From NCBI RefSeq assembly GCF_053078305.1, contig NZ_CP166879.1: a stretch of 64,000 bases of DNA; one strand, given 5' to 3'. The notes beneath the pieces were generated by a model, which was not told where the DNA came from, searched no databases, and was given only the letters and a program-made list of their open reading frames with translations. Numbering within the stretch: position 1 is the stretch's first letter; the number at the start of each line of letters is the position of its first letter. This document shows, piece by piece, positions 22,403-37,772 of the stretch. Position numbers and translations under genes: made by a program.

Positions 22403-24064
22403 TTATATGAAAAAAACCGCATATTCTTTCTTTTTGGGCTCCGGATTCAGGGACATCAGGGATACCGCATTGAACAGCGCCATCAGCGGGTCAATTTTCC
22501 CCCGTCCGCTGGCCTGTTTGGTAATAAGGATGGCGTTACCTTTAGGCTCCACCCGGGCATTGCCAACGCACCAGGCCATCAGTGGCTGACCACCATGCAC
22601 CAGCACTCCCTCAGCCAGTTTGCGCTCGGTGGTTTTGATGGCCCCGCCCAGCTTCCAGCCCTGGCTTATCCCCACAACAATTCCGTCGGGGATCCCGGCT
22701 TCTGCCAGTGAATCCAGAATCTGCCCCACACCTGACGGGTCAATACCGATATGGTCCAGTAACTCAGCCTCATGAATACGACGCACATACTCCGCCACTT
22801 CCGCCGTGTCATCCCCGACCCGACGGACAATCGTCATGTCTCCACTGGCCACAAAATCCTGAAACCGGGATGCCTCACTCTTCCGTCTGACCACCGCGGT
22901 TTCATGCGCCCAGGCATGGCCCCAGCCCAGCCATTCGCGGGTTTCCCTGTCACGACCAATCACGTACATTCCCAGCAGATCATCCAGGCCCCCGCCGTCA
23001 ATCCCCACCGTCACCACATCAGCGCGCTGCAGGATATCGTCCAGGCTGACGCGCCTGCCCTGCTGCTCCCAGAAATCCGCACCCGCCCAGCGGTCAGAAC
23101 GCAGGGCAAGACCAATTTCCACATTGGCGTGTTTTGACATGAAGCCACGAAATGCCTCCTCACCAGCCTCCCGGGCTTTACGGTACTCCCGGTACAGAAA
23201 AGCCTCATCCACCGAATAACCGAGATTCGGGTTAACCATGGCGAGGTTTTCCATCAGCAGGTGCTCACCGCGCTCCACCATCTCCGGCGGATGCTCAAAT
23301 ATCACCGGCAGAAAGTGCGGATCATTAATTTTGCCGTCGCGCACATCCCGGGCGTACTGCAGTTTCTGTCTGAACACCCCGGCGGGCGGCTCATTCGACT
23401 GGGTGGTTGTGTACACCACAAACCCTTCCGGGCGGGAGGCAAGGCCGCCGATGGCTTCACGTAACATGTCCTCCGCTTTGTACTGCTTGCCAAATAACCA
23501 CAGTTCATCAATCAGCGTCCCCACGGACTTGATACCGGACACCGTATTCGGATCGGCAGCCACCACCTTAAGGGTGGTGTCCGTCACCCGATGGGTGATG
23601 GTCCGGATATGTGTCTGCACCTGACAGAGGTCATCCAGATCATCGTCCCGTCGTACCATATCCCTGGCAGGGTTGAAGGCGTTAGCCGCCACCTCCACGG
23701 TCGGGGCCAGAATGGTGTAGCCCGCCGCCTGCCGCCAGTTCAGTAACAGCGCCGTCATCATGATCCCGGCAGCCAGCGTGGACTTGCTGTTTTTTTTGGG
23801 TATCAGAATGAACACTTCCTTTATATGGCGTACACCGGTCTGCGCATCGTAGGAGCCAAACAGGGCAGCCACCAGATCAAACACCCACGGTGCACAGGAC
23901 TCCCCGAACGTCGGGCTGCCCGGTGCATCCACAATCCGCAGTTGTTTAAAAATCGCCAGGGCATGTGCGGCCTGGTCCGGGTAAATCGGAGCCGGAATAA
24001 TCGACAGCCCCTTTTTCAGACGCTCTGCCCAGTCCGGGCAGGCCGTGCTCCACACAGGTATCAT
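22403..24064 (-). CDS. Terminase large subunit
   Basis: 553 aa; position between small subunit and capsid gene. Confidence 0.85.
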   Translation of the reverse strand: MIPVWSTACPDWAERLKKGLSIIPAPIYPDQAAHALAIFKQLRIVDAPGSPTFGESCAPWVFDLVAALFGSYDAQTGVRHIKEVFILIPKKNSKSTLAAGIMMTALLLNWRQAAGYTILAPTVEVAANAFNPARDMVRRDDDLDDLCQVQTHIRTITHRVTDTTLKVVAADPNTVSGIKSVGTLIDELWLFGKQYKAEDMLREAIGGLASRPEGFVVYTTTQSNEPPAGVFRQKLQYARDVRDGKINDPHFLPVIFEHPPEMVERGEHLLMENLAMVNPNLGYSVDEAFLYREYRKAREAGEEAFRGFMSKHANVEIGLALRSDRWAGADFWEQQGRRVSLDDILQRADVVTVGIDGGGLDDLLGMYVIGRDRETREWLGWGHAWAHETAVVRRKSEASRFQDFVASGDMTIVRRVGDDTAEVAEYVRRIHEAELLDHIGIDPSGVGQILDSLAEAGIPDGIVVGISQGWKLGGAIKTTERKLAEGVLVHGGQPLMAWCVGNARVEPKGNAILITKQASGRGKIDPLMALFNAVSLMSLNPEPKKKEYAVFFI

Positions 24065-24618
24065 CCGTTGCCCTCATTATCATTATTCACCACCAGGCGG
24101 GGTGGTGGTGGCACCGCAAAACGGTTAGCCGCTTTTTTCGCCGCGTCACCTTTTGCCGATTTTTTACCGGCATCCCCTTTTTTGTGGTGCGTGAACTGCG
24201 CCAGTCGCCAGGCTGCATCCAGAGCCAGTTTCGGATCAATGCTGATGTTTTCCACCAGGATCCGACCCATGGCTTTCACAGGATCAGGAAGGCCGTCCTC
24301 CATGTAATCAATACCGGATAGTGGAGAGAAACTTTGCCCGTCATCCGGTGGCACTGAAACCTGGTTTTTCTTTTCCACCGGAGGAACTTCCCGGTGGCAC
24401 GCCTGCGTCTTTTTCTGCCGGTAAACAGGAACCTCATCCACCTCCACCGTCTCGCCCTGCTTACGGGCTATAAACGCGAGCACTTCCGGATCTTTTGCCA
24501 GTTGTGAGCCTTTACATCTGGCGGACTTTTCCGAGTAACCAGCCTCAATAGCAGCAGCCGTTCTGTTTTTGCCCGACATGAGCGCCAGCGCAAATTTTCT
24601 TTTTTGCGTCGTCAGCAT
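24061..24618 (-). CDS. Terminase small subunit
   Basis: Internal ATG (MLTTQKRKFALALMSGKNRTAAAIEAGYS...) with GGAGG RBS in track ORF 24061..24654. Confidence 0.7.
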   Translation of the reverse strand: MLTTQKRKFALALMSGKNRTAAAIEAGYSEKSARCKGSQLAKDPEVLAFIARKQGETVEVDEVPVYRQKKTQACHREVPPVEKKNQVSVPPDDGQSFSPLSGIDYMEDGLPDPVKAMGRILVENISIDPKLALDAAWRLAQFTHHKKGDAGKKSAKGDAAKKAANRFAVPPPPRLVVNNDNEGNG

Positions 24619-24901
24619 TCTTTCCTCCGGGGAAAAACAGAAAAACGTCAGCAATCCTCCCGGTAAGAATGGAGGCGGCAGGGAAAATGTTTACCGCTGC
24701 CCTGTAAACATTTTGCGAAAAAAAGGTATAAACATTTACCTCCCACAACGTTATGAATAAAAAGAAAAAAACGGTAAAAATCCATCAGTAGGTTATAAAC
24801 ATGTTTATAACTTCTGAAGGGGAATTTTTTCTCTGCGTGAGAGGGGGCGCGGTGTCCGGAGCGATCGTTTTTTACGCCGGATGATACCCCCCCGGGTCGG
24901 G

Positions 24902-25267
24902 TTACAGTCCGATGATGTCGTCCGCTCTGCCACTACCTCCGGACACCTCCGGCAGTGTCGGGTCCGGCATACCACCCGCCGCTTCACGAGCAGACTTTTG
25001 TCGATGGCATTCGGTACAGAGCGTCCAGAGATTCGTCTCCTCATTACCACCACCGAACTGAAGTGCAATTCGGTGATCGAGTTCACTGTCACAGAGGTCA
25101 ACCACACGACCACAGAGACAGCACTGCCCGGCATCCCTGAGCCAGATATGACGCTTGAGGGAAACACGTGCACTGCCACTGACACGACGCTGTTCACCCT
25201 TCAGAATATTCACCCGTCGGGTATTCAGTGTTTTGATTCTGCTCTGGAGTGTACGAAGCTCAGCCAT
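24902..25267 (-). CDS. HNH endonuclease (terminase-associated)
   Basis: 121 aa; CxxC...DHRIALQFGGGNEETNLWTLCTECHRQKS HNH motif. Confidence 0.85.
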   Translation of the reverse strand: MAELRTLQSRIKTLNTRRVNILKGEQRRVSGSARVSLKRHIWLRDAGQCCLCGRVVDLCDSELDHRIALQFGGGNEETNLWTLCTECHRQKSAREAAGGMPDPTLPEVSGGSGRADDIIGL

Positions 25268-25308
25268 GTAAAATCCCCGTCATAAGGCAATCAGTAAAGG
25301 AAATAAAT

Positions 25309-25509
25309 ATGTCATCGAAAAACCGGACCCGCAGAACCACAACCCGCAATATCCGTTTCCCCAATCACATGATTGAACAGATCAACATCGCCCTTGAGCA
25401 TAAAGGGTCCGGTAACTTTTCAGCGTGGGTTATTGAAGCCTGCCGGAGAAGGCTGGCAACAGATGCAACGCACCTGCGCCCGGCCAGCATGACAAATAAC
25501 GAGAAATGA
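25309..25509 (+). CDS. YlcI/YnfO-family small protein (DUF3950-like)
   Basis: MSSKNRTRRTTTRNIRFPNHMIEQINIALEHKGSGNFSAWVIEACRRRL; internal start of track ORF 25249..25509. Confidence 0.6.
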   Translation: MSSKNRTRRTTTRNIRFPNHMIEQINIALEHKGSGNFSAWVIEACRRRLATDATHLRPASMTNNEK

Positions 25510-25641: not shown

Positions 25642-25989
25642 TCAGGGTGCAGAAGGACTAAAGATAAACGTTTTCTTCACGCCTTTACGCGGCCTGTCCT
25701 TCTCAAATCGCCATTTTGCCATCGCCTTTACAACCTGCTCATCAAACAGATGGTGCGGCTCTGAACGGATAAACTCAATTCGGGTGACAGTACCATCAGC
25801 ACCAATATCAAACTTCACATCAACCCGTCCCTTTATATAATTTGCCGCTGCATAGGCCGGATATTGTGGTAATGCCTTAACCAACTGTCGGGGCATATCT
25901 GTTTTATGTTGCGTACAGCCCATAACCAGAGAAGACAACAAAATAATTAACGGAAGATTTCTTTTCATTTTCATTTTCATTCCCGGCAC
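25642..25989 (-). CDS. TonB C-terminal-domain lipoprotein (moron in the bor slot)
   Basis: Signal peptide with lipobox VMGC; ...LPQYPAYAAANYIKGRVDVKFDIGADGTVTRIEFIRSEPHHLFDEQVVKAMAKWRF... matches the TonB_C signature. Confidence 0.7.
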   Translation of the reverse strand: MPGMKMKMKRNLPLIILLSSLVMGCTQHKTDMPRQLVKALPQYPAYAAANYIKGRVDVKFDIGADGTVTRIEFIRSEPHHLFDEQVVKAMAKWRFEKDRPRKGVKKTFIFSPSAP

Positions 25990-26318
25990 AGATAAGAATA
26001 AGTCTTATTCTAACAATGCCACCCTGTCGGCCATCAATCCTCTGCTTAATGGCAACGACAATTATCCGACTTAAATCACAAATCAGACACATGACATAAC
26101 AGGTCTTGCGAGGTAACACATCGTCCGGTTTCTTCCACCATCGCACCGGACCAGCGACCATGAGGGGACAACGCCGCGCTCCGTTAACGCGGTAAACCCC
26201 GGTGTGTATCGTTTTTGATTATCCCCGCACACTCGCGCAGAGGAGTCTCCCGGTCGGGCTGCGGTCTCTGTTAATGCAGGAATACGGCGACAATACCGCG
26301 CATGAATAATAAGGTCGC

Positions 26319-26543
26319 TCAACACACTGGCTGTAATGCAGCGGATACCATGCGGCATTTAGCGGCATTCATCGTATACTCAACGGTTAGCTCTTCATTC
26401 GTGGCATTCACCTGAAAGGTCCGGGAGTGTAATTGCGTACATTTACCACTGAACGAACCTTCAACAAGAACACGACCACGCTGCAAAATACGGAACGGAA
26501 TTGTTCCCTGAAAAGGCTTTACGGTTACCAATAATTTCTGCAT
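26319..26543 (-). CDS. Hypothetical protein
   Basis: Track ORF; MQKLLVTVKPFQGTIPFRILQRG...; no recognisable family. Confidence 0.3.
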   Translation of the reverse strand: MQKLLVTVKPFQGTIPFRILQRGRVLVEGSFSGKCTQLHSRTFQVNATNEELTVEYTMNAAKCRMVSAALQPVC

Positions 26544-26566
26544 GCATTCTCCGAATAACAAAAATA

Positions 26567-27040
26567 CTAGTTAATACACTGAGTGCGGATATATTCCTGA
26601 AGCATTCTCAATGCTGCCTGGTCGCTGATGATTCCGTCTCTGATACCGAGAACGTTTCGTCCAGCAACCGGAGAGAGTTCGACGGCGGCATCATTGCCCA
26701 CGCCGGAGGTGCCGGTGGCTTCACGCACGGTACCGGGGCAGGTGGCGTTGATCCGCAGGCGCTTACGACCAGCGGCAACATCAGCACGCAGAGTTTCATT
26801 TTCAGCTCTCGCATCGGCTAATTCCCTCGAGTATTTTGCATCGAGCGCAGCAACATCGCGCTGGCGCACCTGCATATCAGTAATGGTTGCGTTTGCCAGC
26901 TCCAGCTCTCTGGCTTTTTTATCACGCTGCGCTTTGTAGGTGATGGCGTTATCGCGGTAATGATTCAGCCCCAGACTAAGCGCACCACAGACCACCAGCA
27001 GAATAACGGTAAACGCGGAAAGCATTCGGTTTATGCTCAC
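26567..27040 (-). CDS. Rz: Rz i-spanin
   Basis: 157 aa; N-terminal TM segment, coiled-coil periplasmic domain; Rz1 embedded in alternative frame. Confidence 0.85.
26608..26802 (-). CDS. Rz1: Rz1 o-spanin lipoprotein (embedded in Rz)
   Basis: [36 protein letters not shown]...; lipobox, Pro-rich. Confidence 0.75.
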
Positions 27041-27523: not shown

Positions 27524-28057
27524 TTATCTGTCGATACCCCAGCACGCCAGCGCGCTCTCCTGGTCACGACGGGATACCTGACCATAACAGTTATTTGAGC
27601 GGATACGGCAGTCTCTGCCACCGTCCTTAATCCACCAGCGAAGCGCCTCACACGCTCCCCTGCGATCTCCTGCATTAATTCGTTTATAAAACGTCGACGT
27701 GAAACACTTACCCGGGCCAATGTTGTAAGGACAGAATGACGCAATACCCGCTTTCTGGGGTTCAGTCAGTGGCACTCTGATGTTTTTCTCCACCCATGCC
27801 AGCGCCTTATCCCGTTCAATGGCGTTAACCTGGTCGCATTTTTCCTTCGACAGCTTCATGCCAGGGACGACAGGCTTACCATCCACCCGGGTGGCACCAC
27901 GGCAGATGGTCCAGATACCCGCACCATCACGGTATGCCGTGGTGTGGTTACCTTCTTTTTCGTCAAGAAACTGGTCGAGGATTTCAGGCGCAGAAGCACC
28001 TGCAGCAATCAGCGCCAGAACGACCGCTGATAAACCATAGCGGAATTTCCTGCTCAT
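27524..28057 (-). CDS. R: SAR endolysin (phage lysozyme, R21-like)
   Basis: 177 aa; N-terminal SAR/signal-anchor helix, lysozyme catalytic region. Confidence 0.9.
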   Translation of the reverse strand: MSRKFRYGLSAVVLALIAAGASAPEILDQFLDEKEGNHTTAYRDGAGIWTICRGATRVDGKPVVPGMKLSKEKCDQVNAIERDKALAWVEKNIRVPLTEPQKAGIASFCPYNIGPGKCFTSTFYKRINAGDRRGACEALRWWIKDGGRDCRIRSNNCYGQVSRRDQESALACWGIDR

Positions 28058-37321: not shown

Positions 37322-37594
37322 TTATAGCTGCTTCTGAATATCATCAACAGGTAATCCTGCCAACTCTCTTACCTCAGAAAGAAGAGAAAGGCTTACAACA
37401 ACCTCATTACTTCGCATAACAAAACCACATTGAAAAGAACCATCACTGTTTCTGTAAACAACAACCGGGCGCGTGCTCTCATAAAACCCCGGGATCAAAC
37501 TGGCTGGGATTTTCACAACACCTCCTGACGTAAAGGAAATGAAATGCATTATCGCTTCTCTCGGACTATAACCATGAAAAGAGACGCATTTCAC
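37322..37594 (-). CDS. Hypothetical nin-region protein
   Basis: Track ORF; no family recognised. Confidence 0.3.
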   Translation of the reverse strand: MKCVSFHGYSPREAIMHFISFTSGGVVKIPASLIPGFYESTRPVVVYRNSDGSFQCGFVMRSNEVVVSLSLLSEVRELAGLPVDDIQKQL

Positions 37595-37772
37595 TCAGTA
37601 AATCTGAGGATTTTATGCGCAAAAACAATGACTTTTTCTGTCTGCCGTTTATACAATCTGAATTACGTCTGTTTTTTGAACAACGATAAATCAGCAAACA
37701 TTCTCAAATAAAGATTGCCTCCATAGTCCACATGGTGTAACACTATGTGTTATATAAAATGCAGAGGCAGGT

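Follow-up and report, generated by a model that had tools for sequence, protein, structure and literature searches.

A stand-alone TonB C-terminal domain with a lipoprotein signal, encoded between the lysis and packaging genes of an Escherichia coli prophage

We analysed a 64,000-nucleotide (nt) stretch of contig NZ_CP166879.1 (RefSeq assembly GCF_053078305.1), referred to here as the window, and in it a small prophage gene on the minus strand, between the lysis and the packaging genes. The product of this gene is a lipoprotein-anchored, stand-alone TonB C-terminal domain (CTD). The explanation that we favour, and hold tentatively, is that the protein would serve as an outer-membrane-tethered, unenergised mimic of TonB that binds TonB boxes and damps TonB-dependent entry. 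The features of the gene are as follows.

25642..25968, minus strand: coding sequence of the TonB-CTD lipoprotein, 108 amino acids (aa) from the ATG used by the Prokaryotic Genome Annotation Pipeline (PGAP)
25918..25968, minus strand: signal peptide, residues 1-17 MKRNLPLIILLSSLVMG, read from the sequence
25915..25929, minus strand: lipobox, LVMG followed by Cys18 (25915..25917), the predicted acylated first residue
25654..25893, minus strand: TonB C-terminal domain, residues 26-105, corresponding to TonB 153-232 (profile, structure and alignment)
25963..25980, minus strand: (ATGAAA)3 repeat at the 5' end of the gene (comparison of near-identical copies)

Domain identity and fold

The mature part of the protein aligns without gaps to residues 153-235 of E. 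coli TonB, with 31 of 83 positions identical (37%). The domain region includes the YP motif, both helices and strand beta3. In terms of profiles, Pfam PF03544 (TonB_C) is matched with E 7.7e-15 over residues 41-108 of the 115-aa form of the protein, and TIGR01352 gives 56.3 bits, above its curated cutoff of 27.1 for the TonB_C family. TonB CTD chains from the PDB match at E ~1e-16.

An AlphaFold model, computed from a 21-sequence alignment, has a predicted local distance difference test score (pLDDT) of 87.5 and the element order E-H-E-E-H-E. Its best Foldseek matches are 1u07, 2gsk and 2grx, with target-normalised template modelling (TM) scores of 0.88-0.92 and root-mean-square deviations of 1.0-1.4 Å. 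The YP motif that goes with the TonB_C fold is formed by Y36 and P37, which are invariant or nearly so among relatives. An initial annotation of this DNA, made from the letters alone, had named the domain, and both the profile search and the structure prediction bear it out.

Compared with the E. coli TonB CTD (about residues 150-239; structures 1U07, 1XX3, 2GRX with FhuA and 2GSK with BtuB), the protein has the same fold at 37-39% identity and no gaps. Identical to TonB are Y163, P164, G174, F180, G186, F202, W213, P220 and F230, and Y215 is replaced by F; we take these aromatic and structural positions to be functionally important. Strand beta3 is present, and the protein stops four residues short of the C-terminus of TonB. 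The family also has conserved motifs of its own, namely SEPxHLFD, KWRFE and KPxxGM.

Unlike TonB, the prophage protein lacks a transmembrane anchor, a spacer and any link to ExbB/ExbD, and carries a lipoprotein signal instead. It is predicted to hang from the outer membrane, whereas TonB is held in the inner one. The absence of anchor and spacer, which the initial annotation had also pointed out, follows from two results. Full-length TonB equivalog models (PRK10819 type) reach 49-73 bits, with none attaining its cutoff (265-448), and the alignment finds no counterpart of TonB residues 1-152, including the membrane anchor. Only 8 residues (TQHKTDMP) separate Cys18 from the start of the domain, with no proline-rich spacer among them.

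Start codon and lipoprotein signal

The open frame extends over 25642..25989 on the minus strand and gives 115 aa when counted from a GTG at 25989. This was the length initially assigned, and it holds for the open frame but not for the annotated protein. The GTG is not conserved, with ATG or GCG in its place in some near-identical copies, and in a 99.9% identical locus the PGAP/RefSeq start is the third ATG (25968), giving a protein of 108 aa of the WP_000828070 type. In-frame ATG codons at 25974 and 25980 are alternative starts.

The precursor reads MKRNLPLIILLSSLVMG followed by CTQHK. It has a positively charged start, a hydrophobic core, a lipobox, Cys18 and a Thr at +2, and thus a bacterial lipoprotein signal ending in the pattern [LVI][ASTVI][GAS]C. 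The lipobox VMGC had been picked out at the outset, and it is retained in relatives at 33-89% identity. The same architecture is found in 11 relatives at 33-49%, and the lipobox regular expression is also matched in Klebsiella-type loci. According to the Lol sorting rule, a residue other than Asp at +2 directs a lipoprotein to the outer membrane. Since Thr stands at +2, we infer that the protein would be acylated and sorted to the outer membrane.

As for the ATGAAA repeat, two units are present in most 98-100% identical copies, and AATAAAAATG occurs in some. The unit number therefore differs, so that the signal peptide has a charged start of variable length, in the manner of a short tandem repeat. 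The gene is under purifying selection, with a ratio of non-synonymous to synonymous substitution rates (dN/dS) of 0.12 between the window copy and the 71% identical variant of phage 21.

Distribution of the family

A 701-nt query covering the locus matches 1582 of 5426 complete E. coli genomes, and in 413 of them at least 80% of the query is found. These 413 copies are nearly always annotated as “TonB family protein” in RefSeq. The gene is found in phage JLK-2012, in Lys8385Vzw and in several Stx1a phages. The 71% identical variant is present in the classical lambdoid phage 21, where it is annotated as “TonB C-terminal domain protein” and lies downstream of bor. Variants of the phage 21 type were also found in ev017, Perceval and PhiR phages.

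The sequence itself is already known and routinely annotated. The initial remark that this is not a characterised phage function stands only for the function: full-text literature searches for phage or prophage TonB-like lipoproteins returned no study of what the gene does.

The relatives found by a full-library search are short lipoproteins with this single domain, at 33-49% identity. Prophages of E. coli, Salmonella, Klebsiella and Rahnella have the gene in the same position behind the spanin genes, at 34-50% identity. In Salmonella prophages, represented by more than 1000 contigs, the order is DUF2514 spanin, TonB_C gene, HNH and terminase, and in a Rahnella lambdoid prophage the gene stands between the lysis genes and a lambda-type terminase. 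Further relatives are carried by Klebsiella phages and plasmids. Members outside phages were found on the Gibbsiella chromosome, adjoining ahpCF, in Erwinia/Pantoea, and on a metagenomic contig without phage genes (P0044). A scan of viral contigs for the family returned only 98-100% identical copies, and one with the relative P0037 gave no matches.

The gene is present or absent between conserved neighbours in related phages, as expected of a moron. Among the matches listed, in 13 phage records the similarity to the 701-nt query is confined to its first 77-78 nt, on the side of Rz, and the gene is missing.

Frameshifted or truncated copies of the phage 21 type were also seen (P0010, P0012, P0013, P0018, P0019, P0021, P0030 and P0032), one of them annotated as “partial tonB-like membrane protein” in prophage CP-933N. 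This suggests that the phage-21-type gene often decays in cryptic prophages.

One plasmid homologue (P0061, 35% identity; locus L014, 5348..5737) is flanked by ParM/StbA partition genes on one side and a Qat-like defence cluster on the other. This cluster (L014, 7213..11737) encodes a KAP NTPase, QatB and TatD.

Position between the lysis and packaging genes

The minus-strand order in the window is holin, lysozyme, Rz/Rz1, a small open reading frame (ORF), the TonB-CTD gene, HNH, and small and large terminase. The initial annotation had described this as the slot of lambda bor, between Rz and the terminase region. The position is right, and like lambda bor the gene is an accessory one that encodes a small lipoprotein and lies between Rz and the packaging genes. 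However, the two sequences are unrelated, and bor is on the opposite strand and linked to serum resistance. The TonB-CTD gene is not a replacement for bor either, because phage 21 has both side by side. The neighbouring features are listed below.

27524..28057, minus strand: lysozyme, upstream of Rz
26567..27040, minus strand: Rz i-spanin, upstream of the TonB-CTD gene
26608..26814, minus strand: Rz1 o-spanin, embedded in Rz (phrog_3198, E 3e-31)
26319..26561, minus strand: small ORF of phrog_2571 (no function assigned), between Rz and the TonB-CTD gene
25309..25509, plus strand: convergent YlcI/YnfO-family gene (25249..25509 in the ORF list)
24902..25267, minus strand: HNH endonuclease, downstream late gene
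24061..24654, minus strand: small terminase (as ORF), downstream late gene
22403..24064, minus strand: large terminase, downstream late gene

The shorter start of the YlcI/YnfO-family gene was taken from the 201-nt PGAP annotation in a near-identical copy. Between this gene and the TonB-CTD gene, a terminator scan and RNA folding (z -0.9) revealed no terminator-like structure.

The lysis cassette is already complete without the TonB-CTD gene. The TonB-CTD lipoprotein belongs to PHROG 1267 (E 2e-42, full length), which is labelled “Rz-like spanin” and placed in the lysis category. We doubt this label because the window has its own Rz and Rz1, and it is probably a propagated annotation error. 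The protein was rejected as an o-spanin: Rz1 is present, and the TonB-CTD protein is globular, not proline-rich and not encoded inside the i-spanin gene.

Fur-like boxes upstream of relatives

Upstream regions were scored with a position weight matrix (PWM) for Fur, built from seven E. coli K-12 promoters (fepA-fes, fepD-entS, fepB-entC, fhuA, tonB, cirA and fecI). Its sites, only seven in number, were selected by us as the best consensus match in each Fur-controlled promoter. The PWM with leave-one-out scoring was adopted because consensus counts fail to separate true Fur sites from background. The seven control promoters match the 19-bp consensus at 12-16 positions, with tonB at 12, and score 10-18 bits in leave-one-out, and as many as 26 positions of the window reach 13/19. 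The scores for the family are as follows.

Salmonella prophage / P0034: TTGATAATTATTATCAA straight after TGT-TAGTAT, 14.9 bits
P0036: Fur-like box, 15.2 bits
P0037: TTGATAACGATTATCAA, 14.0 bits
Klebsiella group: GATAAT..ATTATCA, up to 12.1 bits, degenerate in the commonest variant
Gibbsiella P0039: Fur-like box, 18.6 bits
P0044: Fur-like box, 16.6 bits
Plasmid P0061: Fur-like box 14 nt ahead of the start codon, 13.7 bits
Erwinia/Pantoea P0152: Fur-like box, 12.3 bits
Weak or absent: phage 21, 3.6 bits; Pantoea megaplasmid, 3.0 bits; Rahnella, 3.2 bits; P0154, 0.5 bits
Lineage of the window copy: palindrome, 8.0 bits

In six of 10 lineages, a Fur-like box scoring 12-18.6 bits precedes the start codon by about 10-50 nt. 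The background for scores of at least 12 bits is 0.004-0.02 per 153 nt, and the binomial P is 1e-12 to 2e-8, with lineages counted apart where their upstream regions looked unalignable in our judgement. Since strong boxes are this frequent among lineages, far over background, the family looks iron-regulated through Fur, as judged from these sites. As far as our literature searches showed, a Fur link of the relatives has not been reported before.

In the Klebsiella group, the box apparently lies between -35- and -10-like hexamers. In the homologues of this group (L107 and related loci), the called start ATG falls within the Fur-like box (GATAATG), which produces a spurious MLIYIHGIGVF extension. 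The true start is probably MKKGF, about 30 nt downstream of the called ATG.

The situation recalls stx1AB, which is reportedly Fur-repressed prophage cargo (Calderwood and Mekalanos, 1987). In both cases a lambdoid-prophage accessory gene has its own putative iron-repressed promoter inside the late region. The Salmonella relatives of the TonB-CTD gene have a perfect TGATAAT-T-ATTATCA directly after the -10 element. In contrast with stx1AB, the operator of the window copy is degenerate (8 bits), and Fur regulation within the family is a prediction from sequence.

Palindrome and candidate promoter of the window copy

Two features stand directly upstream of the gene in the window.

25995..26011: perfect 8-1-8 palindrome AGAATAAG-A-CTTATTCT (minus-strand reading; inverted-repeat search)
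26007..26015, minus strand: candidate extended -10, TGT-TAGAAT, read from the sequence, overlapping the left arm of the palindrome

The palindrome had been noticed initially, with a match of about 12 of 19 positions to the Fur-box consensus. Both observations hold, with 12/19 matching on the sense strand and 13/19 on the opposite one. The reading of this match as a sign of Fur is not supported, since a match of this level is no better than chance. In PWM terms the palindrome scores 8.0 bits (7-9.5 in leave-one-out), under all seven control promoters, and 54 of 127,964 window positions equal it. Random 153-nt stretches of the window contain a site of 8 bits in 5% of cases, and AT-rich stretches in 20%.

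Perfect inverted repeats are not rare in themselves, given that the window has 12 of them with arms of at least 8 and spacers of 0-3, compared with 3.3 in shuffled sequence. Among the 12 are nested ones at 24793/24794, 45197/45198 and 50041/50042. The palindrome was rejected as a terminator or leader hairpin by RNA folding, where it is not stable (-4.1 kcal/mol, z +0.5).

We consider it unlikely that this copy is Fur-regulated through the palindrome, which is unconvincing as a Fur box. It does not score like the known E. coli sites. Its placement is nevertheless suitable: it shares bases with the candidate -10, and the transcription start would lie within it; relatives have good Fur boxes in this position. 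The tonB promoter itself has a lower consensus count, and the 89% variant and nearly all 98-100% identical copies retain the palindrome. On the other hand, the phage 21 variant lacks its right arm and the P0007 variant all of it. The palindrome may be a diverged descendant of the Fur operator of the family; the alignment is suggestive but not conclusive.

As for the promoter, elements resembling the candidate -10 stand in the corresponding position in phage 21 (TGT-CAGAAT), the Salmonella prophage (TGT-TAGTAT) and P0036 (TGA-TAGTAT). A two-hexamer sigma-70 scan found no promoter on the strand of the TonB-CTD gene and did not call the candidate extended -10.

The strongest Fur-like site of the window is elsewhere, at 37535..37553 (GGAAATGAAATGCATTATC, 18.1 bits, 14/19), and scores on par with genuine Fur boxes of E. 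coli. This site is located at the 5' end of an ORF at 37322..37594 (minus strand) and just ahead of a small ORF at 37544..37711 (plus strand).

An unpowered TonB mimic as the favoured reading

In the reading that we favour, the signal peptide would be cleaved, Cys18 acylated and the protein delivered by Lol to the inner leaflet of the outer membrane. The 8-residue tether would keep a complete TonB CTD directly below this membrane, where it could compete, unpowered, with TonB at the periplasmic face of transporters. A decoy of this kind, competing for TonB boxes, had been put forward in the initial annotation. It would transmit no energy, because the transmembrane helix and spacer that couple TonB to ExbB/ExbD are missing. 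TonB-dependent uptake would fall, and sensitivity to TonB-dependent phages, colicins and microcins would fall with it, at the cost of some siderophore and B12 uptake.

The gene would be transcribed with the late operon and perhaps also from its own extended -10 promoter. In many relatives the Fur box overlapping the promoter would lead to synthesis at low iron, when transporters are most abundant. In the window copy from E. coli, the operator would have diverged to another palindrome, and Fur control is doubtful.

Several published results bear on this reading. Strand beta3 of TonB pairs with the TonB box of FhuA in the crystal structure (PMC11658791). The exported periplasmic TonB fragments 33-239, 103-239 and 122-239 inhibit the TonB system in a dominant-negative way, with ferrichrome transport abolished and iron-deficient growth (bioRxiv 10.1101/2020.01.05.895219). 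The prophage protein is like these engineered fragments in being a periplasmic CTD uncoupled from its energy source. The fragments are laboratory-made, soluble and over-expressed, whereas the prophage protein is natural, predicted to be lipid-anchored, minimal and widespread on mobile elements.

Another likeness is with Llp of T5 and Cor of phi80, N15 and T1, small phage lipoproteins that inactivate a TonB-dependent transporter from the periplasmic side (PMC9586334, PMC11436027). Llp, an outer-membrane lipoprotein that faces the periplasm, obstructs FhuA from below (PMC9586334), and the tether of the TonB-CTD protein would, by analogy, put its domain where Llp sits in doing so. The prophage protein is likewise small, phage-encoded and predicted to face the periplasm from the outer membrane. 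Among its PHROG matches there are only phrog_1267 and TonB-like families, with no Cor/Llp family. Llp binds the FhuA plug, is specific for the receptor of its own phage, and its gene adjoins the receptor-binding gene. The TonB-CTD gene, in contrast, sits after the lysis genes in a phage with a lambda-type J, and its product would recognise the generic TonB box. Self-exclusion of the Llp/Cor kind was rejected, as the C-terminus of J is of the lambda type and the gene lies about 20 kb from J. Described most simply, this is a lipoprotein-anchored member of the TonB_C family, and it may be a phage lipoprotein that blocks receptors by way of the TonB box they share.

We also modelled with AlphaFold a single fusion of the mature protein, a 20-residue flexible linker and FhuA residues 1-22. 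Exactly the segment DTITVT, that is, the TonB box DTITV and the next Thr, is predicted as a beta strand (pLDDT ~60-75), which is compatible with beta-augmentation by a TonB box.

Several points weigh against the unpowered mimic. The fusion model is not independent of TonB-FhuA training structures and does not show the pairing strand. TonB Q160 is replaced by Leu, and varies within the family, and R166 is replaced by Tyr; both residues are presumably associated with contacts to the TonB box and the plug. A protein competing with TonB would deprive the cell of iron just when Fur derepresses the gene. The chromosomal, non-phage members with strong Fur boxes (Gibbsiella, P0044, Erwinia/Pantoea) suggest an ordinary role in iron starvation, not defence. 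Transporters greatly outnumber TonB, so that blocking them would need many copies of the protein. The tail-tip protein J of this prophage is of the lambda type, with 52% identity to the C-terminus of lambda J and no sign of a TonB-dependent receptor, so the logic of Llp and Cor does not obviously apply. Finally, a PADLOC search gave no match for the TonB-CTD protein.

Alternative explanations

The same Fur-like boxes could be read as a sign of help and not of competition. A tethered domain might aid or regulate outer-membrane transporters at low iron, by holding or shielding exposed TonB boxes, organising transporters or tuning signalling, and in prophages it would be a fitness gene of the lysogen. 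This would explain the strong boxes (18.6, 16.6 and 12.3 bits) ahead of the chromosomal, non-phage members, and it would avoid an inhibitor of iron uptake being induced by iron starvation, which seems counter-productive. Still, we know of no mechanism by which an unenergised TonB domain would help transport. The sole experimental precedent for free TonB C-terminal fragments is inhibition (10.1101/2020.01.05.895219), and we regard such help as quite unlikely.

Very unlikely, in our estimate, is that the fold has been recruited to bind a partner other than the TonB box, such as an imported protein, ExbD or peptidoglycan, with a resemblance to TonB that is structural only. A TonB-like CTD can bind a substrate directly, as with FusB and ferredoxin (7zc8, 9hi3). 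FusB of Pectobacterium is fifth among the structural matches of the TonB-CTD protein, and we cite it only for the ligand versatility of the fold, because FusB is a full-length, energised TonB paralogue whose CTD also binds ferredoxin. The lack of conservation at Q160 and R166 and the motifs particular to the family point the same way, and a preprint from the Postle laboratory asks whether periplasmic TonB fragments also disturb the TonB-ExbD interaction (10.1101/2020.01.05.895219). Set against this, the beta3 edge and the core aromatic residues are retained, and the short tether would hold the domain at the outer membrane, far from most of ExbD.

Two further explanations are less credible. A late outer-membrane lipoprotein could affect lysis or envelope integrity, in keeping with the lysis class of PHROG 1267 and with at least four phage groups in which the gene stands just downstream of the lysis cassette, directly after the spanin or 1-3 small ORFs on. 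This we find highly improbable, given the complete Rz/Rz1 pair, the globular fold and the lack of o-spanin features. Family members also occur on chromosomes and plasmids without lysis genes nearby, Fur boxes would be senseless for a lysis gene, and the region from Rz to the terminase is a known site of accessory genes, bor being an example. That the gene is a decaying, functionless fragment of a captured tonB is hardly tenable. The many frameshifted or truncated copies, mostly of the phage 21 type and with the “partial” one in CP-933N, would fit, but the dN/dS of 0.12 does not. The junction between the new lipoprotein signal and the TonB sequence coincides exactly with the domain boundary, the signal persists in relatives with as little as 33% identity, and the gene recurs in distinct phage groups and genera.

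Wider meaning

TonB-dependent transporters are the entry route of many phages, colicins, microcins and siderophore-antibiotic conjugates. To our knowledge, all phage exclusion lipoproteins of the Llp/Cor class block one particular transporter. A tethered TonB docking domain, if the unpowered mimic is right, would act on a feature common to all TonB-dependent transporters.

It is somewhat unlikely, although worth stating, that prophages and plasmids of Enterobacterales carry a natural, iron-regulated, tethered TonB decoy that broadly protects the host from TonB-dependent invaders, such as T1- and phi80-type phages, group B colicins and siderophore-microcins. Were this the case, exclusion would not depend on the particular receptor and would strike at the energy-coupling step, and the decoy would be a natural template for inhibitors of the TonB system.

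The gene is present in hundreds of Shiga-toxigenic E. coli genomes, in more than 1000 Salmonella contigs, on Klebsiella phages and plasmids, and in phage 21. If the protein blocks TonB boxes, the lysogens would differ in their sensitivity to toxins of competitors, including the DNA-damaging colicins and microcins that induce Stx prophages. Their sensitivity to therapeutic phages and “Trojan horse” antibiotics would also be altered, as would the iron uptake of the host. Should the protein favour iron uptake instead, a new accessory part would be added to a system that has been studied for fifty years.

A 99.9% identical prophage is present in E. coli 2013C-3181 (L002, 1..1059). Before its lysis genes it has genes for a TerB-family protein, DUF3927, the anti-adapter IraM and a SASA-family esterase, and this prophage type has no stx gene.

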